From Desulfobaccales bacterium (GTDB taxonomy: Bacteria; Desulfobacterota; Desulfobaccia; Desulfobaccales; 0-14-0-80-60-11), in the NCBI GenBank assembly GCA_052147455.1, contig JBKQKO010000128.1:7548-71547 (forward strand): 64,000 bases of DNA, given 5' to 3'. Position 1 is the stretch's first letter, and each line of letters begins with the position of its first letter. The notes beneath the pieces were generated by a model that saw nothing but the letters and a program-made list of their open reading frames with translations, made no database searches and was not told the DNA's origin. Both the position numbers and the translations under genes were made by a program. Positions 8,890 to 25,856 of this stretch are shown one piece after another.

Positions 8890-8904
8890 ATGCCAGTTAT
8901 CGAA

Positions 8905-8986
8905 GGGTTAGGGACCAGGGGTTAGGGATCAGTTCAAAGAAAACCTTTCGTTTCTAACCCCTAACCCCAACCCCTAATCCCTGACC
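8905..8986. repeat. TTAGGG(G)-type G-run / C-run imperfect inverted repeat
   Basis: Plus strand reads GGGTTAGGGACCAGGGGTTAGGG (8905-8927), then CCCCTAACCCCAACCCCTAATCCC (8958-8981). GGGGTTAGGG at 8918-8927 is the exact reverse complement of 8959-8968. Confidence 0.85.
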
Positions 8987-8987
8987 T

Positions 8988-10169
8988 CTAACCTGCCCGC
9001 TCTCGCGCCCGGGCGAAGCCGGGGGCGGCATTTTCGATCACCGTTTCCGGCACGCAAAAGGCCAGGCGGAAATGGCCCGGCCGGCCGAAGCCCCGGCCCG
9101 GCACCGCCAGGATGTTCTCCTCCTTCAGGAGGGCCACGAAGGCCAGGTCGTCGCCCCCCGGGGCCTTGGGGAAGAGATAGAAGGCCCCTTTGGGTCTGAA
9201 AAATTCATAACCGGCCTGCTCCAGCACCTGGCAAAAAATCTCCCGGCGCCGGGCATAGGGTGCGATATCCACCCTAACTTCCGTCAGGGGAGCCACCACT
9301 CGCTGCATCAGGGCCGGGGCGTTGACAAATCCCAGGATGCGGTTGGCCAGCACCAGGCCGCCCGCCAGCTCCAGGCGCCCCGGGGTCCGGGGGCTCACCG
9401 CCACATAGCCCAGGCGCTCCCCGGCGATGGAGAGATCCTTGGAAAAGGAAGTGGCCAGCAAGGTGTCGGGGTAGGCCGCGAAGACGCTGGGGACCTCAAG
9501 TCCATCGTAGACGATGCGGCGGTAAGGCTCATCCGCCACCAGATAGACCGGCCGGCCGTGGGCTGCCGCATGCCGCCCCAGCAGTTGACCCAACTCCAGC
9601 AGGGCCGCGGCCTCATAGACCTGGCCGCTGGGATTGTTGGGGGAATTAATGATCACCGCCCGGGTCCTGGGGCTCAAGACCGCGGCCAGGCGGTTCAGGT
9701 CCAGTTGAAAGTTCGCATCGGTTTCCGCCACCCGGGCCACGCCGCCGTGGTTGTCGGCGTAAGCCAGATATTCCACGAAATAGGGGGCAAACACGATCAC
9801 CTCATCACCGGCGTCCAGGATGGTCTTGAGGATGACGTTGAGGGCCCCGGCGGCGCCGCAGGTGAGGATCAAGTCGTCGGCCCTGAAGTCCAGTTGATGG
9901 ACCCGGCCCAGGTGGGCGGCCAGGGCCTGGCGGGTCTCCGGCAACCCGGCGTTGGGCATATAGCCGTGGAGACCGGGGCGGGGGTCTTGCGCCGCGGCCA
10001 GCAGTTCCTCTTTGAACCGGCGGGGCGGCTCCAGGTCGGGATTGCCCAGGGTGAAATCGAAGACTTTATCCGCCCCCAGCCGCGCCCGGAGCTCCCGGCC
10101 CTCTTCGAACATCCTCCTAATCCAGGAGGAGCTCTCCATGGCCGACTTGATGCGAGAGGCAATGCTCAT
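8988..10169 (-). CDS. pyridoxal-phosphate-dependent aminotransferase (class I/II)
   Basis: 393 aa with the PLP-lysine motif SFSKDLSIAGERLGY and NPSG. Confidence 0.85.
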   Translation of the reverse strand: MSIASRIKSAMESSSWIRRMFEEGRELRARLGADKVFDFTLGNPDLEPPRRFKEELLAAAQDPRPGLHGYMPNAGLPETRQALAAHLGRVHQLDFRADDLILTCGAAGALNVILKTILDAGDEVIVFAPYFVEYLAYADNHGGVARVAETDANFQLDLNRLAAVLSPRTRAVIINSPNNPSGQVYEAAALLELGQLLGRHAAAHGRPVYLVADEPYRRIVYDGLEVPSVFAAYPDTLLATSFSKDLSIAGERLGYVAVSPRTPGRLELAGGLVLANRILGFVNAPALMQRVVAPLTEVRVDIAPYARRREIFCQVLEQAGYEFFRPKGAFYLFPKAPGGDDLAFVALLKEENILAVPGRGFGRPGHFRLAFCVPETVIENAAPGFARARERAG

Positions 10170-10178
10170 AAAGTGCCT

Positions 10179-10205
10179 GTTTTCCGTTTTCCGTTTTCCG
10201 TTTTC
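10179..10205 (-). repeat. heptanucleotide tandem repeat (GGAAAAC)x4 in the sense strand, 10 nt upstream of the aminotransferase ATG
   Basis: Plus strand reads GTTTTCC GTTTTCC GTTTTCC GTTTTC. It lies in the 53-nt ilvA-aminotransferase spacer. Confidence 0.9.
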
Positions 10206-10222
10206 AATTCGAAAACCGTCTG

Positions 10223-11434
10223 TTAAGCCTGTTCTTCCACCTGGTAGCCCGCTTCCTGGAGGGCCTGGAGCACCGCCTGGCCATGTTCCAGGTCCCGGGT
10301 CTCCAGATTCAGCTGCACCCGGGTATAGTCCAGGGGCAATTCCCGGGCCAGGCGGTCATGGAACAGGTGGAGGATGTTGGCCCCGGTCCGCCCCAGGAGG
10401 GTGGTGAGGCGCCCCAGAGACCCGGGATAATCTTCCAAGGCCACCCGCAGGGTCAGGAGGCGGCGTTTCTCCAGAAGGGCCCGGGTCAGCACCCGCTCCA
10501 GCAGGGGGATGTCGATATTGCCGCCGCTCACCAGCAGGACCACCCGCCGGCCCAGGGGGCGGGAGGCCAGTTGTCCCAGGAAGGCCGCGGTGGCCACGGC
10601 CCCGGCCCCTTCGGCCAGCACCTTTTTGCTTTCCAATAGCAGCAGCAAGGCCTGGGCGATTTCCTGCTCCTCTACCAATACCAGGTCATTCAGGTACTTT
10701 TTGAGCAAGGGATAGGGCCGGCTGCCGGTCAGGGGCACCCGGATGCCATCGGCCAGGGTGGGCAGGGCCGGCACCGCCGCCGGGGCCCCGTGCCGGAAGG
10801 CCGCCGCCAGGGAAGGCACCTGCACGGTCTGCGCCCCGATGATCCGGACTCCCGGCCGGGATTCGCTCAAGGCCAGGGCGGCGCCCGCCGCCAGGCCGCC
10901 GCCCCCCACCGGCAGCACCACGGTATCCACCTCCGGCAGGTCCTCCAGGATCTCCAGCCCCAGGGTCCCCTGGCCGGCCATCACTTCCTGGTCGTCATAG
11001 GGATGGATGAGGCTATAACCCGCGGCCTCCATGGCCCTGGCCTTCTCCAGGGACTGGGAGATGTCCTGGCCGGACAGGATGACCCGGGCCCCGTATGCCT
11101 GGGTGGCCATCTGCTTGGAAATGGAGGCCCCCTGGGGCATGACGATGGTGGCCGGGATTCCCAGATGAGCCGCCGCGAAGGCCACCCCCTGGCCATGGTT
11201 TCCCGCGGAGGCGGCAACCACCCTCCCACTTCCTTCGCCCCGCTCCTTCAGGAGGGAGAGGCGGTTCATCGCCCCCCGCAGCTTGAAGGAGCCGGTGGTC
11301 TGGAGATTCTCCAGCTTGAGATAGACCTCCCGGCCGCTTACCCGGCTCAAGGTGTGGGAATAAATCAGCGGGGTGTGCAGTACCACCCCTTTAATCCGCT
11401 CTCTGGCTGCTTTGATGTCTCGGAGGGTCAGCAT
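10223..11434 (-). CDS. ilvA: threonine ammonia-lyase (threonine dehydratase) with C-terminal ACT-like domain
   Basis: MLTLRDIKAARERI...LENLQTTGSFKLRGA (PLP lysine). Start set at ATG 11434. The 517-aa ORF extension upstream has no homology pattern. Confidence 0.85.
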   Translation of the reverse strand: MLTLRDIKAARERIKGVVLHTPLIYSHTLSRVSGREVYLKLENLQTTGSFKLRGAMNRLSLLKERGEGSGRVVAASAGNHGQGVAFAAAHLGIPATIVMPQGASISKQMATQAYGARVILSGQDISQSLEKARAMEAAGYSLIHPYDDQEVMAGQGTLGLEILEDLPEVDTVVLPVGGGGLAAGAALALSESRPGVRIIGAQTVQVPSLAAAFRHGAPAAVPALPTLADGIRVPLTGSRPYPLLKKYLNDLVLVEEQEIAQALLLLLESKKVLAEGAGAVATAAFLGQLASRPLGRRVVLLVSGGNIDIPLLERVLTRALLEKRRLLTLRVALEDYPGSLGRLTTLLGRTGANILHLFHDRLARELPLDYTRVQLNLETRDLEHGQAVLQALQEAGYQVEEQA

Positions 11435-11663
11435 CACATGCTTAGGTTTAGGGGAATATTCTCGCTTCAGGCAACCTGGGCCTGGCGCCCACCCCGGCTT
11501 GAGGCCGCCCGACTGGGCGATCCATTCGGCTTGCACGGACTTGAGGTTCAGGTTCAGGCCGGCCTGATCTCTCCAGGGGCCGTCGCCGCCATTGCCAGGG
11601 TCGGTTCTAGTTACTATTTTTCGGCTATAATGACAATACCTTAAAAGGGCCGGGACGCGGGTC

Positions 11664-12347
11664 ATGGAAGTCATGGCAACATTGCTAACCAGGTTCAAAG
11701 GCCGCTTCGCCGGGGAATTGGGGCTTAAGGTCTCCTCCGGCCCCGAGGCGCGGCAGCAGTGGTTTCTGGCGGCCATCTTCTACGGAGCCCGCATCTCCGG
11801 CCTCCTGGCCGCCCGCACCTTCCGGGTCTTCGCGGCGGCCGGAGTCACCTCACCCGAAGCCATCCTGGCCCGGGGCTGGGACGGACTGGTGGCCCTCCTG
11901 GACCAGGGCGGCTATACCCGCTATGACTTCAAGACGGCCAACAAGCTGCTCCAGGTGATGGCGTCTTTGCAAGAGCGCTATCAAGGCTCCCTGGAGCGCC
12001 TGCACGAGGTGGCGGCGGACCCTGCGGACCTGGAGCGGCGGATCATGCAACTGGCCCCGGGGATCGGCCCCGCCACGGTCAACATCTTTTTGCGGGAACT
12101 GCGGGGGATCTGGGTCAAGGCGGCGCCGCCCCTGAGCCCTTTGGCCCAGGCCGCCGCCGTAGAATCGGGACTGGCGCCCCGGGGGCTCAGCCCCCGGGAG
12201 GCCTTGGAGGAGCTTGGCCGCCACTGGCAGGCCCAGGCGCTGCCCGGCTATGACTTCGCCGACCTGGAAGCCGCCCTGGTGCGCCTCGGTCTGGAACTGC
12301 GCCGGGGCAGCCGAAAAAAGGTGGAGGCAGGGGATAAGGGGAGTTAA
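11664..12347 (+). CDS. HhH-GPD / endonuclease III-like domain protein
   Basis: Helix-hairpin-helix signature LAPGIGPATVNIFLRELRG. Family assignment is from memory of the motif only. Confidence 0.55.
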   Translation: MEVMATLLTRFKGRFAGELGLKVSSGPEARQQWFLAAIFYGARISGLLAARTFRVFAAAGVTSPEAILARGWDGLVALLDQGGYTRYDFKTANKLLQVMASLQERYQGSLERLHEVAADPADLERRIMQLAPGIGPATVNIFLRELRGIWVKAAPPLSPLAQAAAVESGLAPRGLSPREALEELGRHWQAQALPGYDFADLEAALVRLGLELRRGSRKKVEAGDKGS

Positions 12348-12420
12348 AACTAAAATAAAAACTCGAAACTCGAAACTGGGCGACCCAGCGGGTCGCCCCT
12401 ACGACTCGAAACTCAAAACT
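12346..12420 (+). repeat. A-rich heptad array (AAACTCG/GAAACTC type) interrupted by a REP-like hairpin, upstream of the HIT gene
   Basis: aaaactaaaataaaaACTCGAAACTCGAAACT, then hairpin GGGCGACCCagcGGGTCGCCCctac, then gACTCGAAACTCAAAACTCAGAGG, then the ATG at 12433. Confidence 0.85.
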
Positions 12421-12432
12421 CAGAGGAACCCC

Positions 12433-12846
12433 ATGCCAAACTGCATCTTCTGCCGGATCGCCTCCGGCCAGGCCCCGGCGGCGCGGGTCCTGGAGACCCC
12501 CGGGGTCCTGGCCTTCCTGGATATCGCCCCGGTGCACTATGGCCACACCCTGGTCATTCCCAAGGAGCATTATCCCACCCTGCTGGAGCTGCCCGACGAC
12601 CTCTGGATGGAAATGGGGTTGGTGAGCCGCCGGGTGGCCCGGGCCCTGGGGACCGCCCTTGCTGCCCCGGGCTTCAACATCGGTATGAATAATGGCGCAG
12701 CCGCCGGCCAGGCGGTCCCGCACGCCCACCTCCACGTCATCCCCCGCTATTTCGGCGATGGCCTGCAACTCTTTCCCCATGATAGCTATCGCCCCGGGGA
12801 TCTGGAAAAGACCGCAGCCCAATTGCGCCAGTCACTGCGGGGGTGA
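12433..12846 (+). CDS. HIT family hydrolase
   Basis: MPNCIFCRI...histidine triad HAHLHVIPR. AGAGGA SD upstream of ATG 12433. The longer ORF from 12214 overlaps the previous gene. Confidence 0.9.
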   Translation: MPNCIFCRIASGQAPAARVLETPGVLAFLDIAPVHYGHTLVIPKEHYPTLLELPDDLWMEMGLVSRRVARALGTALAAPGFNIGMNNGAAAGQAVPHAHLHVIPRYFGDGLQLFPHDSYRPGDLEKTAAQLRQSLRG

Positions 12847-12893
12847 AAACGTAATTTGGTTAAAGGCAGGGTGAGGGGGGAATGATATATTTT

Positions 12894-12994
12894 GTAGGGG
12901 CGCACCCATGTGTGCGCCCCCTTGGAAATGGCGGGCTGTAGGGGCGGGTTTTAAACCCGCCCTTACAGGGCGGACACATGGGTCCGCCCCTACG
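12894..12994. repeat. cluster of three REP-like palindromes (GTAGGGGCG family)
   Basis: GTAGGGGCGCACCCATGTGTGCGCCCC, GTAGGGGCGGGTTTTAAACCCGCCCTTAC and GGGCGGACACATGGGTCCGCCCCTAC. Confidence 0.85.
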
Positions 12995-13117
12995 AAAAAC
13001 CAAGCGAAGCCATTCCCGCGAGATAATGTAAGCTTTTTCAGGAAAATTGGATTATGCATAGTATTAAAATAATCTATGCATATTCTGGATCAGATTAAAT
13101 GCTTCGCCTATGGACTA

Positions 13118-13543
13118 TCAATGTTCTTCATAAATGCCGTATTTTGGATAAAGCATACCGGTAACATACCCTTCTATTGCACCTCTTTTTCGGATATCCG
13201 GCTCTTCAATCCAACGGACCCAGCAATATGATTTTATAAACTTTTTTGCTTCTTCTAATGAGACACACTCGCCAAAATCTATTAGGTACTTTTTAAGACG
13301 AGCATTAGAGAGAGGTCCCATGAGGTGATTGTTATATAATCTTTGTCTAAGATTCTTGCTCCTGCCAATATAGTATGGTATTTGCTTTTCTTCATGGCGT
13401 GCAGTTATGACGTACACACCAGGATTTTGAGGAATTACTGACGGGGTCAATTTCGAGAAAGCAAACGGAGCAGCAGAAAGTAATCTTTCATACGATTTCT
13501 TAAGAAATTCGAACCAGGCATCATCCGGCATATAAATATTCAT
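13118..13543 (-). CDS. GIY-YIG nuclease domain protein
   Basis: GVYVITAR....IPYYIGRSKNLRQRLYNNH matches the GIY...YIG...R motif spacing. It sits in an AT-rich patch of about 650 bp that contrasts with the flanks. Confidence 0.65.
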   Translation of the reverse strand: MNIYMPDDAWFEFLKKSYERLLSAAPFAFSKLTPSVIPQNPGVYVITARHEEKQIPYYIGRSKNLRQRLYNNHLMGPLSNARLKKYLIDFGECVSLEEAKKFIKSYCWVRWIEEPDIRKRGAIEGYVTGMLYPKYGIYEEH

Positions 13544-13670
13544 ATCTCTTTTTTCCTGTAAATTCTTTTTTACTTTATTGATTAATTTATTGCTAAATGT
13601 GCTCAGTTGTCAATTTTTTCTTCAAGAAACTTTGATAGCAAGGTGACATGGTAAGTCCCAACCATTTCAA

Positions 13671-13710
13671 ATAAAAAAGTCGGAGCGATTCACCCTCCGG
13701 CTTTTTTTTA
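13671..13710 (-). terminator. bidirectional Rho-independent terminator after pabC
   Basis: Stem GTCGGAG/CTCCGGC (13679-13701) flanked by A6 on the left and T8 on the right, so a T-run follows the hairpin on both strands. Confidence 0.6.
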
Positions 13711-13741
13711 GGTTAAGCGTTCAGGAGCGCCCGCAGCACCT

Positions 13742-14570
13742 TCACCGCCCGGCTTCGGCCCAGAGGCTTTCCCGCAGAGAATCGGACTTTTCGGAGATGG
13801 GAATTGCTTGACCGTCGATGGAGGCCACCGGCATCAGGCCCAGGAGGGCGTTGGCCAGCCAGATACCCTCGGCCTGGCGCAACCGGGTAGGCTCGGTGGG
13901 GACCACTTCCAGTAACAGACCCAGGCGGCCCAGGGCTAGGGTTAAAACAGCCAGGGTGACTCCCGGCAGGGCGCTGGCCGCCGCCGGGGTGCCATAGACC
14001 CCGCGGCTGAGATAGACCAGGCTGGTGGCGGCGCCTTCGGACACCAGGCCGTCGGCCTCCAGGATGAGGGCCTCCCTGGCCCCCCGTTCCAGGGCGTACT
14101 GCCGGGCCGTCAGGTAAAACAGGTAATTGAGGCTCTTGTGGCGGCCGAGGCAGGTGGTACGCCGCTCCGGAAAGGTGACCACCGGCCAGCCGGCGGCGTA
14201 CTCCGCGGGCGGCGGCGGTTCATAGGGCTGGGCCCAGATCACCAAAGTGGGGCGGCTCGCCGCCGGCAAACCCAGCCCCGCCACCGCACCTCGGCTAAGC
14301 AAGATCTTCACCCGGGCCACCCCCCGGTCCAGACCGTTCACCGTCAGCAGCCTATTCAGGTGCGCCTCCCAGGGCAGGTCCCCGGGAAAGGGCAGGCGGA
14401 AGGCCGTGGCCGAAGCCTCCAGGCGGATCAAATGTTCTCTGAGAAAATATATCCTGCCGGCCTCGGCCCGGATAGTTTCAAAAAGGCCGTCCCCGTATTG
14501 AAAGCCCCGATCATTCACCGACACCCGGGCCTGGTCCAGGGGAACCAGGTCATCATTGAGCCAGACAAAT

Positions 14571-14584
<14 letters not shown>
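13742..14584 (-). CDS. pabC: aminodeoxychorismate lyase (class IV aminotransferase fold)
   Basis: 280 aa with the class IV pattern (RGFQYGDGLFET, EGAATSLV). Overlaps the pabB stop and lies last in the pabA-pabB-pabC order. Confidence 0.75.
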
Positions 14585-16018
<1,434 letters not shown>

Positions 16019-16022
<4 letters not shown>

Positions 16023-16768
16023 TTCCCCCGCCCTCTCCTCAAGCTCTCCTGTCCACCCCCTGGATGGGGCAGGGGATTGGGGGAAGGTTTTGATATTTTG
16101 GGCAGTTCGGGTATTTTTGGAATTTTTCGTATTTTTGGTATTTTTTGTAAGGGCAGGGACCGTCGGCCCCCGGCGTTTTCCCAAAACTCCCCCCAACAAC
16201 TATCCCGCCCCTCCCGCAAAAAATTCGCCGCCAGTTGCCGGCCGTAACCGGTGAGGAAGGACTCCGGGTGGAACTGGACCCCGTGCAGGGGATAGCGCCG
16301 GTGGCTCAGGGCCATGATCACTCCATCTTCACTGCGGGCGGTGACCTCCAGGTCAGGGGCGACGGAGGCCGCCATCAGAGAATGGTAGCGGGCCGCGGCA
16401 AACGGCGACGGCAGGCCGGCAAACAGGCCCCGCCCCTGGTGGCAAACCTGGGAGGTCTTGCCATGCACCGGGGCCGGGGCCCGGACCGTGACGCCGCCGA
16501 AGACCTCGTTGATGGCCTGGTGGCCCAGGCAGACCCCCAGGATGGGCAGGCGCCGATGAAAATGGGCGATCGCCGCCTTGCTGATCCCGGCTTGGGCTGG
16601 GGCCTTGGGGCCGGGGGAGATGCAGAGCCAGGCGGGCTTGAGGGCCTCGATCTCCGCCAGGGTCACCGCGTCGTGACGGAAGACCAGGACCTCCAGGTTA
16701 AACTCATAGAAGAGCTGCACCAGGTTGAAAGTGAAAGAATCGTAATTATCGATCATCACCAGGCGCAT
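16019..16768 (-). CDS. pabA: aminodeoxychorismate/anthranilate synthase component II (glutamine amidotransferase) with about 55-aa K/P-rich tail
   Basis: MRLVMIDNYDSFTFNLVQ, catalytic GVCLGHQ and FHPES. The homology pattern ends near ANFLRE, but the ORF continues through the 9-nt repeat (KIPKIRKIPKIPELPKI). Confidence 0.85.
16111..16146 (-). repeat. 9-nt tandem repeat x4 (sense CAAAAATAC type) at the pabA/pabB junction
   Basis: Plus strand reads GTATTTTTG GAATTTTTC GTATTTTTG GTATTTTTT. Confidence 0.9.
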
Positions 16769-16884
16769 TCCAGCCCCCATAAAAAAAAGCCGCCCCAGGA
16801 GTCTGGGTGGCTTTGGCCTGAACATAACTCTCAGCTTTTATATATGGAGATTAACCGGCGGTGTCAATGGTTTTCTCAGGCCGC

Positions 16885-17238
16885 TCAGGACCCGGAGTTG
16901 CCCCGCATGCGGATGAAATAGAGGGTGCCGAAGGCGCTGCCAGCCAGGCAGTGATGCTCTAGGTCGTAATGCGAAACATAGCCAGCGTCGTAGTCCTCAC
17001 CTTCCCCCAGACCCATGGCCCGGTCCATATCGCCGTCAGTGGCCATAACCAGGGCCTGGAGGAAGACGGCGCCGCCGTTGCGGGCCGTGGGATCGTGGGC
17101 GAACACCGCCCCGCAGTCGCAGAATCCCCCGGCAAAATCGTACCACTGACCCTCCTGCAACTGCACCGGGCGCAGCACCTCAACGCCGCAAAAAGGGCAG
17201 CGCACCTTGTGGGTTTGGTCTGAAAACAGCTTCGGCAT
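16885..17238 (-). CDS. hypothetical protein with N-terminal CPFC...CDC zinc-ribbon-like motif
   Basis: 117 aa from ATG 17238 (GAGG SD 8 nt upstream). It is the first gene of the pabABC string. No family recognised. Confidence 0.55.
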   Translation of the reverse strand: MPKLFSDQTHKVRCPFCGVEVLRPVQLQEGQWYDFAGGFCDCGAVFAHDPTARNGGAVFLQALVMATDGDMDRAMGLGEGEDYDAGYVSHYDLEHHCLAGSAFGTLYFIRMRGNSGS

Positions 17239-17504
17239 CAAATAACCTCGCAAAGCATTGCTGGGCCGGGATCACCTCGGAGAGCCGCCGCCGGAGAAAA
17301 TTGCCGTTGGTGGGGCGGGCCGCAGTAATCGCCAGTTACGGCAGGCAGAGCCGCCTGCCCCACCCGGCCGCCGCACTAACCAAATCCCGGTTCAGTCCAT
17401 TATCCACCATTTTTCCGTTTTCGGCAATTATCTCCACTTCTATTGACACTGCGGCTTCTTAGCCTTAAATTATTCCATACCTCGCAGTCAAAGGAGAGGA
17501 AACC

Positions 17505-17684
17505 ATGGCTGACAAGATTATATCCTTTTCGGTCCAGGAGCAGATGAAGCTCGAGGCCATCGTCATCGACAAAGACGGGGAAGAGGCCTTGCGCTACCTG
17601 GCGCAACTGGATGACCGGTTAAATCCGCATTACGGCCACGCCTGCGGGCCGAAGACGGCGGAAGGCCCCCCGGGGCGCGGCTGA
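17505..17684 (+). CDS. small protein (59 aa), paralog 1, GHACG motif
   Basis: AGGAGAGG SD then ATG. Sequence MADKIISFSVQEQMKLEAIVIDKDGEEALRYLAQLDDRLNPHYGHACGPKTAEGPPGRG. Below the 60-aa cutoff of the ORF track. Confidence 0.55.
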   Translation: MADKIISFSVQEQMKLEAIVIDKDGEEALRYLAQLDDRLNPHYGHACGPKTAEGPPGRG

Positions 17685-17811
17685 TAACCATTTTTTTTAA
17701 CGAGAAAAGCGACGGCTACAGGGGCTGGACCGGCCCCTGGGCGCCCGCCGCGGCACCGCCCCCCCGATAAACCGCCATCCGGGGAGGGTTCACCTGGCAG
17801 ATGAGGACATT

Positions 17812-17976
17812 ATGGCAGACAAAGAGATCGTCTTTTCGGATCAGGAGCAGCAGCAGATACAGGCCATAGTCATTGACAAGGACAAAGACGAAGCCGTCCG
17901 TTATTTAGCCCGCCTGATGGACCGCATCAAGGGGCAGGCCGGCCATGCTTGCGGCTTCAAGCCGGCCAGGGGGTAA
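17812..17976 (+). CDS. small protein (54 aa), paralog 2, GHACG motif
   Basis: GAGGA SD then ATG. Sequence MADKEIVFSDQEQQQIQAIVIDKDKDEAVRYLARLMDRIKGQAGHACGFKPARG. About 60% identical to the upstream small ORF at protein level, with diverged DNA. Confidence 0.55.
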   Translation: MADKEIVFSDQEQQQIQAIVIDKDKDEAVRYLARLMDRIKGQAGHACGFKPARG

Positions 17977-18005
17977 AGAAGGCGATAAGCGCTCCTGAAG
18001 GCGAG

Positions 18006-18641
18006 ATGGACCGGTTGGCCCTGGTGTCCGACACCCACGCCTACCGGGCCGGTATGCCCGCGTTGTTCGTCTTTCTCCGGCGCCAGGGCCTGCGTCACCT
18101 GGCCTGCCTGGGGGACTGCCAGCCGGAGCCTTTCCGGGATTGGCTGTCCCTGGACCCCGGCCACCGCCTTTATTGGGTCTATGACGTCTTTGGCCCCCAG
18201 TTGCCGGGAGCCACCGCCTGCGGGGTGGTCCTGGAATTGGAGGCCAGGGTCTTTCTGGCCCATACCCGGGCTCTGATCTGGACCCATTACGATGAGCGCA
18301 TCCGGGCTTACCGGCGCGGGGCCCATACCTGCCGCCCGCCCCTGCTGGCCTGCCATGGGCATACCCACGTGCCTTGCGTCACCCGCTTTGCCCCACCCTT
18401 CAGCCGCCTGCTTTACATCAATGACGCCATCCGGCCCGCGGAGTTCCAGCCGCGCCAGGCCTGCCTGAGCCTGGAGCCGGACACCGTTTACCTCATAGTC
18501 CCCGGGGCCTTCACCCTGGAGGAGGGGCGTCATTCCACCTTCAGTTTCGCGGTGCTGGACCTCCTTACCTCACGGCTGGCCATGGTTTCCCTGCGGGACC
18601 TGGCCGTCCTGGATTCCTTGCAGCTGTTCCCCCCGGAGTAA
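18006..18641 (+). CDS. metallophosphoesterase family protein
   Basis: MDRLALVSDTH (DxH), CLGD (GD) and ACHGHTHVP (GHTH) motifs. Start set at ATG 18006. Confidence 0.7.
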   Translation: MDRLALVSDTHAYRAGMPALFVFLRRQGLRHLACLGDCQPEPFRDWLSLDPGHRLYWVYDVFGPQLPGATACGVVLELEARVFLAHTRALIWTHYDERIRAYRRGAHTCRPPLLACHGHTHVPCVTRFAPPFSRLLYINDAIRPAEFQPRQACLSLEPDTVYLIVPGAFTLEEGRHSTFSFAVLDLLTSRLAMVSLRDLAVLDSLQLFPPE

Positions 18642-18689
18642 GTAACCACGCGGCAATAATTACATAATTTCGTAATTATAGTAACGTTT

Positions 18690-18880
18690 CCCCCCCCCTC
18701 ACCCTATCCTCTCTCTTCCCCGGTAGGGGCGGCGTCTCGCCGCCCGGGCGGGGAAACCCCGCCCCTACGGCGGGGAGAGAGGGAGCAAAAAGCCGGTTTC
18801 CCCAGGTTTACTGAGAGCGTCAATGGGATTGTATCTTTAGCCCCTCTCCCCCAATGGGGGACGACACCGGGTGAGGGGGA
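18690..18880. repeat. nested REP-like palindromes (two families)
   Basis: CCTCTCTCTTCCCCG-GTAGGGGCGGCGTCTCGCCGCCCGGGCGGGGAAACCCCGCCCCTAC-GGCGGGGAGAGAGGGAG, and CCCCTCTCCCCCAATGGGGGACGACACCGGGTGAGGGGG. Confidence 0.85.
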
Positions 18881-19051
18881 AATAAGCGTCTCTCTCTTTA
18901 TCTTTGGTTTCCGTGCGTCCTGGCGCCTAGGGAGGAAAGTTTCTCTAACTTATTATAACTCCTGGGAAAAATATTCGCGACGAGGCGCGCCAGTGGGGAG
19001 CAAAATAATTTGAGAGGAGATTAGATGCGGGGACGCCGGGGATAACCGGCA

Positions 19052-19597
19052 TTAGCGGGTCGAAGACAGAATATCCGGGATCAGGTACATCTTTCCGGCT
19101 TGCAGTTCCCCGGCTACCAGGGCGTCGGTGGGAAAGGCCAGGGGCTGGGGCGGCTGGGCCACTGGGAAAAAGGCCACTTCGGTGAGATCGTCTCCGGCCC
19201 TCAGGTCCCCTCCCACCACGCGGCCGGCAAACCAGAGGCCCACGGTGAGACGCTCCGGGTCGTGGAAATTGGAGTGGGCCGCCAGCAGTTCCCCCACTTC
19301 CACCGCCAGGCCCGTCTCCTCCTGGAACTCCCGGGCCGCGGCCTCCCTGACCTCTTCTCCCCACTCCAGGTAACCGCAGGGGATGCACCAGGCCCCCGGT
19401 GCTGGTCCCCCGGCCCGGCGCCCCCATAAAATCTGCTCCCCCCGGCGCACCACCACTGCCACCCCCACCGCGGGGTTGACGTACAAAACCCGGCGGCAGT
19501 CCCGGCAGGCCAGGCGGTCCCGTCCCCCCAGGGGACGCCTCTCCAATGGCCCGCCGCAGCAGGGGCAGAAGCGGAAAGAGGGTGGATTGCAGGACAT
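19052..19597 (-). CDS. NUDIX hydrolase with N-terminal zinc ribbon
   Basis: MSCNPPSFRFCPCCGG...CRDC, then NUDIX box GYLEWGEEVREAAAREFQEETGL. Only the last 181 codons of the 407-aa ORF are NUDIX. Confidence 0.85.
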   Translation of the reverse strand: MSCNPPSFRFCPCCGGPLERRPLGGRDRLACRDCRRVLYVNPAVGVAVVVRRGEQILWGRRAGGPAPGAWCIPCGYLEWGEEVREAAAREFQEETGLAVEVGELLAAHSNFHDPERLTVGLWFAGRVVGGDLRAGDDLTEVAFFPVAQPPQPLAFPTDALVAGELQAGKMYLIPDILSSTR

Positions 19598-19601
19598 GTT
19601 A

Positions 19602-19650
19602 GTTTCGAGTTTCGAGTTTCGAGTTTCGAGTTTTGAGTTTTGAGTTTTGG
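19602..19650 (-). repeat. heptanucleotide tandem array x7 (sense TCGAAAC x4, TCAAAAC x2, CCAAAAC) ending 4 nt upstream of the NUDIX ATG
   Basis: Plus strand reads GTTTCGA x4, GTTTTGA x2, GTTTTGG. Confidence 0.9.
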
Positions 19651-19696
19651 TGGTTAATTGATTTGTGGAGCCCTGGCATACCCCTTCTCTTTTCTT

Positions 19697-19731
19697 ATAA
19701 ACCGAAAACTGAAAACCCAAAACCGATAAAT
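19697..19731 (+). repeat. heptad array (ATAAACC GAAAACT GAAAACC CAAAACC GATAAAT) in the sense strand upstream of EF-G
   Basis: Read directly. It is roughly the inverted counterpart of the 19602-19650 array in the same divergent spacer. Confidence 0.8.
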
Positions 19732-19804
19732 GTCTTTTAAGGTTGAAAGTGCAGGCAAATTCATTTAAAAAAAATCGTGGCTCCAATTTTTTCGGAGAAG
19801 TCCC

Positions 19805-21853
19805 GTGTCCAACCCCAGGCTCATGGCCATCCGCAATATCGGCATCATCGCCCACATCGACGCTGGGAAGACTACTCTCACGGAGCGCATCCTTTATTAC
19901 ACCGGCCGCACCCACAAGATGGGGGAGGTGCATAACGGCGCCGCGGTCATGGACTGGATGCCCGAAGAGCAGGAACGCGGCATCACCATCACCGCGGCGG
20001 TGACCACCTGCCAGTGGAAGGGGTGCGTCATCAATATCATCGACACCCCGGGACATGTGGACTTCACCATGGAAGTGGAGCGCTCCCTCCGGGTTCTGGA
20101 CGGCGCCATCGGGGTCTTCGACGCGGTGAGCGGGGTGGAGCCCCAGTCGGAAACCGTCTGGCACCAGGCCGACAGATACCGGGTGCCGAAATTGGCCTTC
20201 ATCAACAAGATGGACCGCCTGGGCGCCAACTTCTGGGCCGCGGTGGCCTCCTTGAAGGAGAAACTGGGGGCCCATCCCCTGGTGCTCACCATCCCCTGGG
20301 GGGAAGAAGACCAGTTCCAGGGGGTCATCGATCTTCTGGCCATGAAGGCCCTGAAATGGCGGCAGGAAACCCTGGGGGTAGCCTTCGAGGAACTAAAGAT
20401 CCCCCCGGACCAGGAGGCCGCGGCAGCCGCGGCCCGGGAAGCCCTGGTGGAGGCCCTGGCGGAGGTGGACGACGAAGTGATGGAGGCCTATCTGGCAGAA
20501 CGCCGGCTGCCCCCGGAGGAGATCAAGGCCGGGGTGCACCGCGCCACCCTGGCCCTCAAGGGGGTGCCCACCTACTGCGGCTCCGCCCTGCGCAACAAAG
20601 GGGTCCAACCCCTGCTGGATGGCATCAAGGATTTCCTGCCCAATCCCATGGAAGTGCCTGCCATCCTGGGGCAAAACCCCAAAACCGGGGCATCCGAACC
20701 GCGGCCGGCCCGGGACGACGGCCCCCTGGCTGCCCTGGCCTTCAAGATCATGGTGGACCAAAACCAGCGCCTCACCTATGTGCGCCTCTATTCCGGCACC
20801 CTGAAGGTGGGCCAGGAGGTCTTTAACCCGGTCAAAGGCGTCTCCGAAAAGGTGGCCCGCATCCTGTGGATGCACGCCAACAAGCGAGAACCCCTGGAGG
20901 AGGCCCACGCCGGCAGCATCGTCGCCCTCCTGGGCCTGAAGGCCACCACCACCGGAGACACCCTGTGCAGCCGGGACCGCCCCATCGTCCTGGAGCCCAT
21001 CTCCTCCTACCTGCCGGTAATTTCCCTGGCCATCGAACCGCTGACCCGGGACGATCAGGAGAAGCTGGAACCAGCCCTGGCCCGGGTGTCCGAAGAGGAT
21101 CCCAGCCTGCGCATCCATACCGATGAAGACACCGGCCAGACCCTGCTCTCCGGCATGGGAGAACTGCACCTGGAAGTGATTATCCACCGCCTGCAGCGGG
21201 AGTTCCACGCCCAGGTTCGGGCCGGCCGCCCCCAGGTGGTCTATCGGGAAACCATCGCCCTGGCAGCCGAAGAGTCCGGGACCTTCGACCGGGAATTGGC
21301 AGGCAAACACCACTTCGCCGAAGTGCGCCTGAGCCTCTCCCCCCGTCCCCGGGGCTCAGGCAATGCCTTCGTTTCCCTGCTGGCCGCGGAACACCCGGCC
21401 CAGGGCTGGGTTGCGGTCATTGGCCGGGCGGTGCAGGAAGCCCTGGAAGGGGGGGTGGTCTACGGCCACCCCGGGGTGGATGTGGCCGTGGCCCTGGCCG
21501 GGGCCGCGATCAAAGAGGGCCAGGCCTCGGAGATGGCCTTCCGCATCGCCGCCACGGCCGCCCTGAGGCAAGGGTTTAATCAGGCCCAGCCCCAACTGCT
21601 GGAACCCATCATGAAGGTGGAGATCATCACCCCGGAAGAGTTCACCGGGGAGGTCGTGGGAGACTTCGCGGCCCGCAAGGGCAAAGTGGAACAGCTCCTC
21701 GCCAAGGGGCCGGTGCGCCTCATCACCGGCGCCGCCCCCCTGGCGGAGATGTTCGGCTATGCCACCGCCCTGCGCTCCCTGACCCAGGGGCGGGGCACCT
21801 TTACCCTGCAGTTCGACCATTACGGCTCCGTGGAGCGGCGGGAGGAGAAGTGA
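19805..21853 (+). CDS. fusA: elongation factor G family GTPase (stand-alone paralog, GTG start)
   Basis: G motifs [14 protein letters not shown] and NKMD. 682 aa. It is not in an rpsL-rpsG context. Confidence 0.9.
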
Positions 21854-21897
21854 GTGAGCAGTGACCAGTGAAAGGGGCTAGTGGTCGTAGCATTTGG

Positions 21898-22072
21898 GTA
21901 GCCGCAGGCTTTAGCCTGCGCTATTGTTGTGCTTCGTAATAGTATGGCATTAAATCGAATGAAAACCTAAGTTCCAGGGGTATTAAAGTCCCCCTTTGGA
22001 AAAGGGGGATTTAGGGGGATTTCAGGAGGTTATTTTAAATCCCCCCCCTGCCCCCCTTTTTCAAAGGGGGGT
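21898..22072. repeat. REP-like hairpins and G/C-run palindromes between convergent fusA and prfB
   Basis: GCAGGCtttaGCCTGC, CCCCCTTTggaaAAGGGGG, GGGGGATTT x2 and CCCCCCTTTTcAAAGGGGGG. Confidence 0.7.
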
Positions 22073-22382
22073 TAAAAAACCGTAGTTTGAAATGTTTATA
22101 GCAATTATGAAGCATCACACCAGGGCCGGATTTTAAATACGCCCCTACGGAAACTCTGTTTCTCTTCGGCAGGGGTAATGGGTTGGAGTCCTGCCATGAA
22201 AACCGAGTTGAGGGAAACCGGGAGCCGCGTCATCAAAGAAGGCATGCCGCGCCAGTGCGCCCACGTCCAGGCGGCGGCGCCCTGGAGGGCGGAGTGCCCC
22301 CCGGCCCTCCGGCTGAGTGCGGAAATAACTCCCCGCCCGGGCCGGGCCGGGTAAGGGAAGGCATGAGGGGGTGGGGCGAGGA

Positions 22383-23514
22383 TCAGCGGCCGTTAGCCCG
22401 GGCCGGGGTCTGGAGTTCCTTCTTTTCATCCCGTTCCAGGATATAGGCCTCGATGAAGCCGTCCAGGTCGCCGTCCAGGACCGCATCGACGTTGCCGGCC
22501 TCGTACTTGGTACGGTGGTCTTTCACCAGCCGATAGGGCTGCATCACGTAAGAGCGAATCTGGCTGCCCCAGGCGATATCCTTCTGGGATTCCTGCATCT
22601 CGTGCTTCTTCTCTTGCTGCTTCCGCCTTTCCAGGTCATAGAGCCGGGCCCTGAGGACCTTCATGGCCAACTCCCGGTTGCGGTGCTGGGAGCGCTCCGT
22701 CTGGGAGGAGACCACGATGCCGCTGGGCAGGTGGGTGAGGCGCACCGCCGAGGAGGTCTTGTTGACGTGCTGGCCGCCGGGACCACTGGCCCGGAAGGTG
22801 TCGATGCGCAGGTCTTTCTCCTGGATGTCGATCTGGATGTGGTCGTCCACCTCCGGCAGTACCTGGACCGCGGCGAAGGAGGTGTGGCGGCGGCCGCTGG
22901 CGTCGAAGGGGGAGATGCGCACCAGCCGGTGGATGCCCGATTCGCTCTTCAGATAGCCATGAGCGTAAGGGCCGGAAACGCTGAAGGTGGCGCTCTTGAC
23001 CCCGGCTTCATCCCCCGGCAAGAGGTCGATGGTTTCGCTCTTAAAGCCGTGGCGTTCGGCGTAGCGCAGATACATGCGCAAGAGGATTTCAGTCCAATCC
23101 TGGGCCTCGGTGCCGCCGGCGCCGGCATGGATGGTAACGATGGCGTTGAGCGGGTCTTCCTCGGCCCCCAGCAGCAGCTTGAGCTCCCAATCCCGGAAGG
23201 TTTCCACCAGTTTGGCGAGCTCGCCGGCCACTTCCTTGAAGGCCTTGTGGTCTTCCTCCTCCACCGCCAGGTCCAGGAACACCTCGAGGTCCTCTACCTG
23301 GCGTTCCTTCCCTTGCCAGTCCGCCAGGGCCTGCAGCAAGGCGCCCCGCTCCTTGAGGATCTCCGCGGCTCGGGCCTGGTCGTCCCAGAGTTCCGGGGCG
23401 GCCAGCAGTTCTTCCAAATGGCGCAATCGCACCTGTTTTCCAGCCAGATCAAAGATGACCTCGGAGCAGTTCCAGCCGGTCTTTAAAGTCATTTATCTTA
23501 ACCCGGATTTCCAT
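22383..23514 (-). CDS. prfB: peptide chain release factor 2, requires programmed +1 frameshift
   Basis: Frame 0 from ATG 23514 reads [24 protein letters not shown]. The +1 frame continues [15 protein letters not shown]... with SPF and GGQ motifs. Confidence 0.9.
23449..23460 (-). promoter_or_regulatory. RF2 +1 frameshift site GGT CAT CTT TGA T with upstream GAGG SD-like element
   Basis: Minus strand CGAGGTCATCTTTGATCTG. The CTT TGA shift site is at 23454-23449. Confidence 0.85.
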
Positions 23515-23731
23515 GACGTCGGGTAACATAAGCCATCTCCATTAAGGGTTTTGATGAAATGCGCAGGCGGGAGTGAATCGGCCCCGCTGGGAGCGCACCC
23601 CCGGTACGTCCCGGATTTTTTCAAGGGGCGGCCTCCGCCTCTGCGGCCAGGAGTCGAAACCAGCCTGGGAAATCATCTTATTAAATTTTATCAGAAAAAT
23701 GGGAAATGGGAAGATCCGCAGGCCCCGGGCC

Positions 23732-24469
23732 CTAGTTAAAGAGCAGGGCTCCCAACAATACCGCAACCTCCACCACCTCGTTGGCCGCGCCCAGGGCGTC
23801 CCCGGTGACCCCGCCCAGGGTTCTCTTAAAATACCGGCTCATCAGCCAGATGAGGACCCCGGCCCCGGCCCAGAGGAGCAGACCCTTGAGTCTCAGCAAC
23901 AGCACCGCCAACCCCAAGGCGCTGAGACCGGCCCCGGCCGCGGTGCGGCGGCTCACGGTGGTCATGGCCTGCCCCAGTCCGCCTTCCGGACGGGCGTAAG
24001 GGGAGAGATAGGCGAGGAACACCATACCCCAGCGGCTCACCAGAGGATAAAGGATGAACTCGGCGCGCCAGCCCTGCTGCCCGGCGGCCAGAAAACAGGC
24101 GAATTTCAGCAGCAACACCAGGATCAGGCTCATTACCCCGAAGGCGCCCACCCGGGAGTCCTTCATGAGGCGCCGCCGCTCTTCCGGGGTGCGGCCGCCA
24201 CCCAGGCCGTCCATGGTATCCGCCAGGCCGTCCAGATGGAGGCCGCCGGTGATCCAGACACTGAGGCAAAGCAGCAGGGCCGCGGCCGCCGGCAACGGCA
24301 GCACCCGGGATAACCCCAGCCAGGCCCCCAGGAAGATCAGGCCCAGCAGGGCCCCCACCCAGGGAAACCAGAACAGGGAGCGGGCCAGGTCCTGCGGCGA
24401 CGCCAGCGGCGCCCGGGGCCAGGGCGCCTTGGTAAGAAAGGTGAGAGCCAGAGGAAAGGTGCAATTCAT
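23732..24469 (-). CDS. cobS: adenosylcobinamide-GDP ribazoletransferase (cobalamin synthase)
   Basis: 245-aa membrane protein with the GGLHLDGLADTMDGL motif. Confidence 0.9.
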   Translation of the reverse strand: MNCTFPLALTFLTKAPWPRAPLASPQDLARSLFWFPWVGALLGLIFLGAWLGLSRVLPLPAAAALLLCLSVWITGGLHLDGLADTMDGLGGGRTPEERRRLMKDSRVGAFGVMSLILVLLLKFACFLAAGQQGWRAEFILYPLVSRWGMVFLAYLSPYARPEGGLGQAMTTVSRRTAAGAGLSALGLAVLLLRLKGLLLWAGAGVLIWLMSRYFKRTLGGVTGDALGAANEVVEVAVLLGALLFN

Positions 24470-24595
24470 CGGATTTTCCGGGTTGACTTGCAGAGGCGGC
24501 AGTGCACCGGCCTCCGGGCGGTCAATCGAGTCGCCCGGGCGGCCCCATCACCGGCTGGAAACCTGCGCCACTGTCACCCCTACGCCTGAGAAAGG

Positions 24596-25657
24596 CTACC
24601 CCTCCTTTTCGGACACCCCGGCCTCGGCGAAGGTGGCCATCTCGCGGTAGATCTTGAGGGCGGCCTCCACCAACAGCATCCCCAGGGCGGCGCCGGTACC
24701 CTCTCCCAGCCGCATATTGAGTCGCAGCAAGGGGTTCAGCTTCAGATAATCCAATACTAACTGATGTCCCGGCTCCACCGAGCGATGGGCGGCGATGAGA
24801 TAATCGGTGGCCGCCGGCGCCAGGGCCGCGGCCACCAGGGCCCCGGCGCTGGCGATGAAGCCGTCCAGCAGCAGCGGCCGCCGGGCCGCGGCGCACCCCA
24901 GGATAAGCCCGGCGATCCCGGCAATCTCCAGGCCCCCCACCGCGGCCAGGGTCCCCAGAGGGTCGCTCGGGTCCGGCCGGTGCAGGTTGATGGCCGTGTT
25001 GATGACCGCCACCTTGTGTTGCCAAACCTTATCTTCGATACCGGTGCCCCGGCCGGTGACCGCGCTCACCGGGCGGCCGCAGAAGACCGAGGCCAGGGCC
25101 GAAGCCGGGGTAGTGTTGCCGATACCCATATCGCCGGCGGCGATCAGGTCCACCCCGGCGGCGACGGCCGCTTCAGACCGTTCCACCCCCACCAGCAAGG
25201 CCCGCAGGGCCTCCTCCCGGGTCATGGCCGGCTCCCGGGCCATATTCCGGGAGCCATAGGCCACCTTGCGGGAGATGAGCTCCGGGGCCTCGGCGAAATC
25301 GTGGTTGACCCCGATGTCCACTACTTCCACCCGGGCCTGGGCATGGCGGGCCAGGACATTGATGCCCGCGCCTCCATGGAGGAAGTTGTAGACCATCTGA
25401 AAGGTGACGTCCTGGGGGAAGGCGCTCACCCCTTCGGCGACCACTCCATGGTCCGCAGCAAAAACCACCACCCATTTTCTCTGCAGCTCCGGCCAGGGGT
25501 CCTGGCGGATGGCCACATAGCGGGCTGCCAGCTCCTCCAGGCGACCCAGGCTGCCCGGGGGCTTGGTGAGGGAATCCAGGCGCTCCTGGGCCCGGGCCAG
25601 CCAGGCGGGGTCCACCGGTTCTATCTGGGCGATTATCTGGGATAATTCCTTCATCAT
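24596..25657 (-). CDS. cobT: nicotinate-nucleotide--dimethylbenzimidazole phosphoribosyltransferase
   Basis: 353 aa with GDMGIGNTT and the GSLGRLEEL pattern. Confidence 0.9.
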   Translation of the reverse strand: MMKELSQIIAQIEPVDPAWLARAQERLDSLTKPPGSLGRLEELAARYVAIRQDPWPELQRKWVVVFAADHGVVAEGVSAFPQDVTFQMVYNFLHGGAGINVLARHAQARVEVVDIGVNHDFAEAPELISRKVAYGSRNMAREPAMTREEALRALLVGVERSEAAVAAGVDLIAAGDMGIGNTTPASALASVFCGRPVSAVTGRGTGIEDKVWQHKVAVINTAINLHRPDPSDPLGTLAAVGGLEIAGIAGLILGCAAARRPLLLDGFIASAGALVAAALAPAATDYLIAAHRSVEPGHQLVLDYLKLNPLLRLNMRLGEGTGAALGMLLVEAALKIYREMATFAEAGVSEKEG

Positions 25658-25856
25658 GGGAAATTTACCTTTTACCTTTCGCGACTGATTTTCAGGATAT
25701 CCATAAACCAGTGATTCTTCCGTTGCGCCGAAGGCTGATTAGCTCAGTAGTATCCGGCAACAAAATTGCATGGAGAAGGTTACGCTATCTCGCAGTTAAA
25801 CTCTATACCATTATAATTTCAACGATATCAACATATTATACCGATGCAACTAAATT

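Follow-up and report, generated by a model that had tools for sequence, protein, structure and literature searches.

Short tandem arrays of A-rich heptamers stand in the sense strand, a few bases before the start codons of unrelated genes, in a 64,000-nt stretch of DNA from a Desulfobaccales bacterium (NCBI GenBank assembly GCA_052147455.1, contig JBKQKO010000128.1, positions 7,548 to 71,547 of the forward strand; this whole stretch is called the window below). The source is a metagenome-assembled genome (MAG) of the Thermodesulfobacteriota, with a GC content of 60-66% outside a low-GC block at 30-51 kb. We found that such arrays are in excess, keep a 7-nt register, are biased in strand and position toward starts, persist at the same leaders across species and accompany starts at which Shine-Dalgarno (SD) motifs are scarce. 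The explanation we favor, with a probability of about 0.45, is that replication slippage makes the arrays and that selection keeps the A/C-rich ones as unfolded, ribosome-loading leaders at starts whose SD is weak or missing. New here are the Desulfobaccales lineage, the interchangeable units built on an AAAC core, and a non-random placement before starts that is tied to a weak or absent SD.

Arrays were called with Tandem Repeats Finder (TRF) and with a period self-match scan that was compared with shuffles, and the gene map was drawn from Pfam matches and from gene calls stored with matching public contigs. A first-pass annotation of the window had listed six A-rich tandem stretches ahead of genes, and all six are present in the sequence at their positions. 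The strong cases are the arrays of the aminotransferase, HIT and NUDIX genes, in which the A-rich strand is the sense strand and the array lies 2-13 nt from the ATG. These arrays and the surrounding genes are as follows:

8988-10169, minus strand: class I/II aminotransferase (Pfam and gene calls)
10179-10205, minus strand: (GGAAAAC)x3.9 array, called by TRF as (GTTTTCC)x3.9 with 100% matches
10223-11776, minus strand: PALP-enzyme gene (Pfam and gene calls)
11664-12347, plus strand: 227-aa open reading frame (ORF) of unassigned function, directly 5' of HIT
12346-12377, plus strand: 5' half of the HIT-leader array, TTAAAACTAAAATAAAAACTCGAAACTCGAAACT, with its strict tandem part at 12359-12377 (TRF, AAACTCG x2.7)
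12380-12403, plus strand: element of the repetitive extragenic palindromic (REP) type, GGGCGACCCAGCGGGTCGCCCCTAC, a GC hairpin with a perfect 9-bp stem, then CTAC, inserted in the HIT-leader array
12404-12422, plus strand: 3' half of the HIT-leader array, ACTCGAAACTCAAAACTC (TRF, ACTCAAA x2.7), followed by AGAGGAACCCC and the HIT ATG at 12433
12433-12846, plus strand: HIT (Pfam and gene calls)
19052-19598, minus strand: NUDIX (Pfam NUDIX match), divergent from EF-G across a 206-nt spacer
19601-19649, minus strand: (GAAACTC)x4 (AAAACTC)x3 array, called by TRF as (AGTTTCG)x6.7 at 19601-19647 with 97% matches

The aminotransferase array sits in the 53-nt spacer behind the PALP-enzyme gene, with 9 nt (AGGCACTTT) separating it from the ATG at 10169. 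The NUDIX array ends 3-4 nt before the ATG at 19598, and that gene does lack an SD, as had been noted. What had been described as a single array in the HIT leader is two short arrays split by the GC-rich hairpin GGGCGACCCAGCGGGTCGCCCCTAC. The A-rich strand was correctly named as the mRNA strand at all six listed loci. Placement just upstream of starts was borne out for the aminotransferase, NUDIX and HIT genes but not for the array on the EF-G side, which lies 74 nt upstream of its start, or for a 9-nt array assigned to pabB, which lies inside the pabA ORF. Similarly, the proposed location in short spacers or 5' leaders describes the 7-nt arrays, which lie between called genes, but not the 9-nt array within the pabA/GATase ORF. 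It had also been argued that neither REP elements nor coding sequence accounts for the arrays; REPs indeed do not explain the heptamers, but the HIT array encloses a REP hairpin, and an ORF contains the 9-nt array.

The repeats are far more numerous than chance would provide. The pattern RAAACNNRAAACNNRAAAC, with at most one mismatch, matched at four loci in the window (10 overlapping matches) against 0.04 expected from shuffles, and self-match runs of period 7 with a score of at least 10 numbered 4 against a shuffle mean of 0.04. Under a stricter criterion, in which arrays reducible to a shorter period were left out, 7 was the sole period from 4 to 12 that yielded arrays in the window. In being head-to-tail heptamers longer than composition predicts, the arrays resemble the long simple sequence repeats (LSSRs) of prokaryotes, and so they do in location, since every A-rich heptamer array in the window sits between called genes; the only arrays within ORFs were a GC-rich GGCCGGG x2.7 and the 9-nt array. 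A search of the whole window against Rfam 15 at the gathering score returned a tRNA-His (matched at 30252-30324) as its sole match and no curated RNA family at the arrays. A scan of the window for promoters and terminators gave nothing that coincided with the A-rich arrays, its one overlap being with a weak array of opposite sense at 23697-23712.

We also asked how widely the heptamers occur, using comparison loci that are designated by L-numbers: L005 and L006 are assemblies of the same population, L007-L021 are Desulfobaccales, L022, L024 and L083 belong to other orders, and L087-L166 are metagenome contigs. The aminotransferase and EF-G proteins are identical in MAG GCA_052325785.1 and in one further assembly, and in a scan of species-representative genomes the aminotransferase of the window was 94-96% identical to those of L007-L009, 84% to that of L010 and 66-79% to those of L011-L021. 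In the 85 kb of L007-L010 there were 21 arrays of period 7 versus at most 4 for any other period. Their density was 6 per 100 kb in the more distant Desulfobaccales loci and 1.1 per 100 kb in 65 loci of other taxa. Pairs of RAAAC in 7-nt register numbered 33 in 232 kb of Desulfobaccales DNA versus about 4.75 for each alternative spacing, an enrichment of about 7-fold, while the other taxa gave 16 such pairs in 963 kb and no enrichment of the register. The commonest form of the unit is a run of A followed by C (GAAAACG, GAAACTC, AAAACTC, AAAACCG, AAAACAG, AAACCGC); further heptamers in the lineage are GTTCAAA, GGGTTAG/GGGATTAG and a few that are GC-rich.

Comparison of orthologous leaders showed that arrays stay at the same leader across species with 73-96% protein identity (70% for HIT in L010). 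The aminotransferase leader carries (GAAAACG)4 in the window, CGCAAAC and AGAAAAC units in L007, (ACAGAAA)4 in L008 and (AAAAACA)3 in L012; L011 and L021 have A-rich arrays of three units. In these array-bearing leaders the SD position is reduced to AGG or GGG, while the leaders that have no array (L013-L019 and L022) show a clear AGGA, GAGGA or AGGAG there. The HIT leader contains GAAACTC/AAAACTC arrays in the window and in L007-L010, with the array of L010 abutting the ATG, and it has a plain SD and no array in L012, L013, L015 and L021. The ATG of the NUDIX ortholog in L009 comes directly after TAAT, which in turn follows five or more GAAACTC units. The dciA leader has (ACCGAAA)n in L011 and L021; in the window and in L007 the array there is the C-rich arm of a hairpin made of heptamers. 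The spacer around the arrays cannot be aligned between species, which indicates that the array at each leader is maintained despite turnover of its unit and copy number, and a difference in unit number between orthologous arrays is what slippage of LSSRs leaves behind. The GAAACTC unit had been noted as common to the NUDIX and HIT leaders. Joint regulation of the two hydrolases through it is not supported, as GAAACTC is also found ahead of a response-regulator gene in L020 and units are exchanged freely between orthologous leaders.

To assess strand and position, which the first-pass annotation had itself proposed as a test, we counted ATG or GTG codons beyond the array end that open at least 90 codons, on the A-rich strand versus the T-rich strand. 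This symmetric test needs no gene model and was used because gene starts are uncertain in MAGs. A bias was found both in the Desulfobaccales loci and in metagenome contigs. For 15 of 24 A/T-skewed Desulfobaccales arrays, a long ORF opens on the A-rich strand no more than 40 nt away, in most cases with an ATG at 0-16 nt. On the reverse strand the count was 5 of 24, all of them GTG and likely to be antisense shadows of the upstream gene. Counts of ORF ends next to arrays were dropped, because T-sense units and some A-sense units contain TGA, which inflates them.

Metagenome arrays were obtained by scanning contigs of the Joint Genome Institute (JGI) with RAAACBS x3 plus RAAAC, which gave at least 80 loci, the 80 listed carrying 94 arrays. 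RAAAC-type heptamer arrays are widespread among the metagenome matches listed (L087-L166), on contigs with a GC fraction of 0.23-0.71; a few are probably eukaryotic and telomere-like (CCCAAAA in L119 and L158, CCCTAAA in L152) and are unsuitable for a bacterial census. Among the matches listed, forward and reverse starts numbered 34 versus 12 within 80 nt, 25 versus 1 within 40 nt and 20 versus 0 within 30 nt, and the 25 to 1 division has a binomial p of about 8e-7. The background orientation bias of A-rich motif pairs at other spacings was about 2:1. Ordinary leaders in the MAG are 29% A, 20% T and 28% G; they are thus richer in A than in T yet also G-rich, whereas the arrays are G-poor, so that inherited composition explains only part of the orientation effect. 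Of the 25 forward arrays among the matches listed, 12 lay between co-directional ORFs, some in spacers shorter than 50 nt. This short intercistronic setting, which is also that of the 53-nt spacer before the aminotransferase, favors a role at the level of RNA.

The starts next to arrays were poor in SD motifs, which we counted as GGAG, GAGG, AGGA or AAGG. Among the metagenome matches listed, 27 of 31 array-adjacent starts had no SD motif, against a baseline in the MAG of 24 called genes out of 36 that have one. In the window, the NUDIX and aminotransferase genes have no SD motif and HIT has one; arrays also precede an SD in L125 and L157. The downstream genes encode genuine proteins and are indeed unrelated to one another, as had been claimed; they include NUDIX, HIT, the aminotransferase, TGT, LigT, an ABC ATPase, a DEAD helicase, response regulators, a B12-binding domain protein and a sigma-54 activator.

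The arrays are best described as heptameric simple-sequence repeats of the form RAAAC-NN, in which a run of A closed by C is joined to two or three variable bases, and they would arise and turn over by replication slippage favoring 7-nt units, as in many prokaryotes. Selection would retain them in 5' leaders and intercistronic spacers where the A/C-rich, G/U-poor strand is the mRNA, with the array ending a few bases before the start codon, at the place an SD would normally occupy. We infer that the arrays are transcribed and that their RNA forms an unfoldable tract, a landing or standby site for the ribosome of the kind bound by ribosomal protein S1. Such a tract would permit initiation at starts with a weak SD, such as the AGG or GGG of the aminotransferase leaders, or with none, as in NUDIX. 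Enhancement of the S1 type, independent of an SD, is plausible on the grounds of position, SD scarcity and weak predicted structure. A translation-leader role at SD-less or weak-SD starts had been suggested before; the start-proximal bias and the scarcity of SD motifs fit the suggestion, and HIT, with both an array and an SD, speaks against it.

Several observations weigh against this explanation. Slippage can sustain an array without selection, so that persistence is not proof of function, and repeats born from leaders richer in A than in T would inherit part of the strand bias. The predicted folding energies of three array leaders were -5.6 to -7.8 kcal/mol, compared with a mean of -12.3 (sd 6.5) for 33 other leaders, a difference that concerns three genes only and lies inside the spread of the other genes. 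The AAAC core is nearly invariant, which is more specific than an unstructured A-rich tract needs, and HIT has a GAGGA SD despite its array. In addition, about 5 of the 24 lineage arrays are T-rich in sense and lie 1-20 nt past a stop codon (L017, L018, L021, L010 and L006), and there are inverted pairs of arrays whose predicted structure is a long hairpin. These post-stop arrays and hairpin pairs indicate that a leader role alone is incomplete.

Some of the same facts could be had from slippage alone, with the arrays as functionless by-products that survive only where they are harmless and are A-rich in sense when born from A-rich leaders, and with selection doing no more than purging, near starts, the U/G-rich orientation, which could pair or imitate a terminator. 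Heptamers are reported to be the commonest class of long simple-sequence repeats in prokaryotes and are ascribed to polymerase slippage (Mrazek et al. 2007, as summarized in PMC4679880). There are many unit types here, including G-rich ones and one in a coding region, units and copy number drift between species, arrays also occur past stop codons, the leaders already have more A than T, and the background orientation bias of A-rich motif pairs is about 2:1. However, the ratios of 25:1 and, within 30 nt, 20:0 among the matches listed are far above that background, and the G-poor arrays differ from ordinary leaders, which are equally G-rich and A-rich. Moreover, arrays persist at their leaders across species while the neighboring spacer is scrambled, and their presence coincides with the loss of a strong SD. 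Neutral slippage with such purging appears unlikely to us, although it deserves to be taken seriously.

The near-invariance of the AAAC core, with the other two or three positions of the unit varying between arrays and between orthologs, raises the question of whether a dedicated RNA-binding protein reads one AAAC per subunit in 7-nt register, placing many unrelated genes under one post-transcriptional control. The model for such a factor would be HutP, a ring-shaped regulator whose targets are UAG triplets 7 nt apart, or chains of cold-shock proteins. The roughly 7-fold enrichment of the register in the lineage and its absence in other taxa agree with a factor of this type, as does the usual copy number of 3-5. 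Comparable proposals have been made elsewhere, namely a post-transcriptional regulator for the TAACTGA repeats (PMC4679880) and an unidentified binding partner for the heptamers of Nostoc (10.1101/2022.06.06.494920). On the other hand, no candidate protein was identified, and the metagenome pattern imposed RAAAC, which makes the conservation of the core there circular. Contigs of GC 0.23-0.71 would need a very widespread factor, and the G-rich, GTTCAAA and other heptamers at the same positions argue for a process that does not depend on the unit. We consider a dedicated binder unlikely. It is less probable still that RAAAC-NN arrays are a cis-element of several phyla that is read in 7-nt register by a conserved factor, be it an RNA-binding protein that forms oligomers or, by way of S1, the ribosome itself, and that defines a distinct, SD-independent mode of initiation or control. 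The TAACTGA repeats would then be a special case, and the post-stop T-rich arrays and hairpins would be the other half of a system of intercistronic punctuation.

Three specific binding partners were also tried and rejected. CsrA was suggested by the GGA of (GGAAAAC)n, but most units contain no GGA. The ARN triplets of Hfq are incompatible with a 7-nt period, which breaks a 3-nt register. Pairing of AAACUC with GAGUUU at the 5' end of 16S rRNA was set aside because the units vary and because the rRNA segment is buried in helix 1.

A role at the level of DNA seems very unlikely. Arrays with T in their units that adjoin an ATG could be weak promoters that give leaderless or nearly leaderless mRNAs and so explain the missing SD. 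TCGAAA matches 4 of the 6 positions of TTGACA, GAAACT has the A2 and T6 of TATAAT, and the two are 17 bp apart in four TCGAAAC units, three unit lengths giving the canonical start-to-start distance of 23 nt. Promoters are directional, arrays often end 0-10 nt from the ATG, and the divergent NUDIX gene needs a promoter within its 206-nt spacer. Nevertheless, the scan found no promoter site in any A-rich array. Arrays free of T in the sense strand (GGAAAAC, ACAGAAA) supply no -10-like hexamer and the single-T array ACCGAAA of L021 supplies at most one, yet these have the same placement. Many arrays are in very short intercistronic spacers, and some (HIT, L125 and L157) precede an SD.

That the arrays are contingency loci changing copy number, or pieces of one dispersed mobile repeat, is highly improbable: the arrays have no conserved flanks, terminal repeats or transposase, and copy number was unchanged in three of the arrays compared between strains. 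In a second strain, 99.58% identical over 11.4 kb, the arrays at 8954, 10179 and 12359 aligned without any insertion or deletion, and the same three are invariant across four assemblies. The one array that differs is that of NUDIX, which in L006 has three AGTTTCG units instead of four. That difference of one unit speaks for contingency, but it sits at a discontinuity in the flank, for in L006 another gene lies to the left and its TAG stop is 1 nt before the array; the discontinuity is either a real rearrangement or an assembly join. The contingency idea raised in the first-pass annotation is not supported. The 7-nt arrays are in leaders and spacers outside reading frames, so that a slip cannot switch frame, no promoter-like site spans them, and the associated genes are housekeeping rather than surface genes. 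In favor of a mobile repeat are the recurrence of GAAACTC at several loci and species and the REP inside one array, but that REP is inserted in some orthologs only. A mobile-element origin was rejected, as no common flanks were found among the arrays.

Synteny with the same-population assemblies breaks at 19596-19601 and at 22082. Past 22082, L005 and L006 carry ndk and other genes absent from the window; this break adjoins an inverted repeat at 21979-22081 and is either a real rearrangement or an assembly join at the repeat.

The remaining arrays are weaker or differ in kind:

16088-16149, minus strand: 9-nt array, CAAAAATAC-like x6.9 (TRF, 73% matches), 66-127 nt upstream of the called pabB start at 16022
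19697-19731, plus strand: degenerate array CCGAAAACTGAAAACCCAAAACCG (TRF, 4 copies, 80%, at 19699-19726)
19805-21853, plus strand: EF-G (Pfam and gene calls)
23697-23712, plus strand: weak AAATGGG x2.3 array (TRF), flanked by prfB-like and cobS genes that both run on the minus strand; its sense strand is T-rich, so that its orientation is opposite
24596-25657, minus strand: cobT (Pfam DBI_PRT)
25664-25679, minus strand: weak (AAAGGTA)x2.3 array (TRF, TTTACCT x2.3), 6 nt before the cobT ATG at 25657

The EF-G-side array is partly complementary to the NUDIX array, and the EF-G start, a GTG at 19805, has its own GGAG. A 12-codon ORF (MSFKVESAGKFI, 19730-19768, plus strand) opens with an ATG 6 nt past this array and closes with TAA at 19768, leaving 36 nt to the EF-G GTG; either a leader peptide or chance could account for it. 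The cobT array alone is within chance because its score is only 9, and such runs are expected at 0.25 per window.

The 9-nt array encodes part of the C-terminal tail of pabA/GATase, in the frame of that ORF (16019-16780, minus strand); its translation is ...KIPKIRKIPKIPELPKISK... The GATase domain ends at residue 189. The remaining 64 residues of the ORF run through the array, which gives KIP repeats, and the ORF ends in an overlap with the start of pabB (GTGA). The pabB gene was called from 16022 and not from 16199. We found this array only in the window and in L007. In distant relatives pabA stops earlier and a non-coding spacer separates it from pabB; in L015 this spacer contains (CTGACTG)x3, 14 nt before pabB.

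Not all heptamer arrays of the genome are A-rich, as one inverted pair in the window demonstrates:

8904-8993, minus strand: inverted heptamer pair downstream of the aminotransferase stop and ahead of the start of dciA; the mRNA reads first (GGGTTAG)n and then (CCCTAAC)n, separated by a 25-nt loop

The predicted minimum free energy of this hairpin is -49.7 kcal/mol. Its counterparts have paired arms in L007 and L010 and the G-rich arm only in L008 and L009. The G-rich arm at 8954-8993 reads GGGATTAGGGGTTGGGGTTAGGGGTTAG in the mRNA and, having at least four units with tracts of at least 3 G, is G-quadruplex-capable by sequence, although the predicted duplex hairpin would compete. In other orders, different heptamer arrays occupy the spot between the aminotransferase gene and dciA (CAGGTGA in L022, CAGGGTA in L083 and GGTTCAA in L024). 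In L010, (AGTTTCG)n, a REP hairpin and (AAACTCG)n lie between convergent genes and are predicted to fold with -61.8 kcal/mol (z = -8.7). In general, G/U-rich arrays follow stops and A/C-rich arrays precede starts, and some of them are paired. A second unit family, GTTCAAA, has a 3'-end rather than a 5'-end placement: (GTTCAAA)n arrays lie in sense at most 5 nt past the stop codons of HIT and another gene (L007 5128-5154; L008 7080-7115 and 19716-19750).

REP elements and larger mosaics of them (BIMEs, bacterial interspersed mosaic elements) combine GTAG with an imperfect palindrome, are multicopy and intergenic, lie between co-transcribed genes and are associated with RAYT nucleases. The heptamer arrays are likewise multicopy, intergenic and placed between co-transcribed genes, but they repeat head to tail and lack both a palindrome and GTAG. 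GTAG or CTAC beside a GC-rich hairpin is the signature of the REPs of E. coli, and it is present in the hairpin at 12380-12403 and in neighboring elements. L008 has the HIT-leader hairpin at the corresponding position, and L007 and L009 lack it. REP-like GTAG/CTAC with GC-rich hairpins also occur at 12890-12997 and 18718-18773; the former is a three-hairpin cluster at which the short-read MAG contigs L001 and L005 both end. By the REP cluster, at 13000-13700, is a patch of 45% GC with a 141-aa ORF (13118-13543, minus strand) that gives a weak match to GIY-YIG nucleases. Farther along, a tRNA-His (30252-30327) is followed by the low-GC block (37-57% GC), which extends to 51000 and contains a branched-chain amino-acid ABC transporter operon and an MFS transporter gene that is split (35679-36320 and 32058-32699) by an IS1595-family transposase (34673-35554).

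Reports of unexplained heptamers beside starts in a few unrelated bacteria go back a decade. If the arrays load ribosomes or bind a regulator, they would be a common, unannotated bacterial translation signal and could aid the calling of starts in metagenomes; even as slippage debris they would be relevant to assembly, since arrays are places where contigs break or disagree. In a literature search for strings of the RAAAC units we found no description of them. Several known systems are related. Prokaryotic LSSRs with units of 5-11 nt are dominated by heptamers, occur in patchy lineages, are mainly non-coding and are proposed to originate by slippage (Mrazek et al. 2007, as summarized in PMC4679880); that summary mentions no bias of strand or start codon, and the bias here is strong. 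The GGGNATC heptamers of Xanthomonas and Nostoc prefer about four units, are over-represented between co-directional ORFs and are transcribed; their G-rich strand is the sense strand after stops and the antisense strand before starts (Rehm et al. 2015, PMC4692102). Our (GGGTTAG/GGGATTAG)n array at 8954-8993 is alike, but the A/C-rich arrays cannot form G-quadruplexes, and their polarity differs, the A-rich strand being sense upstream of starts.

Among the putative regulatory elements annotated in Geobacter metallireducens are GGACCGG x4 (49 copies) and MTYCTGA x5 (Aklujkar et al. 2009, PMC2700814). These too are multicopy sets of 4-5 tandem heptamers, in a related group (the former Deltaproteobacteria), but the units are different, GGACCGG also occurs inside genes, and proximity to start codons was not reported. 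Nostoc PCC 7120 has (TTCAAAA)3 repeats within 100 nt of starts or near promoters, in both orientations and with a non-canonical SD, and deleting another heptamer repeat, upstream of recO, changed reporter output (Pradhan et al. 2022 preprint, 10.1101/2022.06.06.494920). These share with our arrays the A-rich heptamers near starts and differ in unit and organism.

The closest parallel is the TAACTGA repeat of marine Beggiatoaceae and some cyanobacteria and Bacteroidetes, which occurs in 2-6 copies and is mostly intergenic (MacGregor 2015, PMC4679880). It lies in forward orientation just upstream of the starts of functionally unrelated genes, mostly without a ribosome binding site (RBS), and S1, Csp or CsrA were proposed to bind it (PMC4679880). 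Tandem 7-nt units, forward orientation to starts, a mostly absent RBS and unrelated downstream genes are common to the two systems. They differ in that TAACTGA is one strict unit, while here several RAAAC-NN variants are interchangeable, the nearest metagenome variant being AAACTGA, and in that the arrays described here belong to the Desulfobaccales and are joined by T-rich-sense arrays past stops and by inverted hairpin pairs. The RAAAC-NN arrays are thus of the same kind as the TAACTGA repeats, with new units and in a new lineage.

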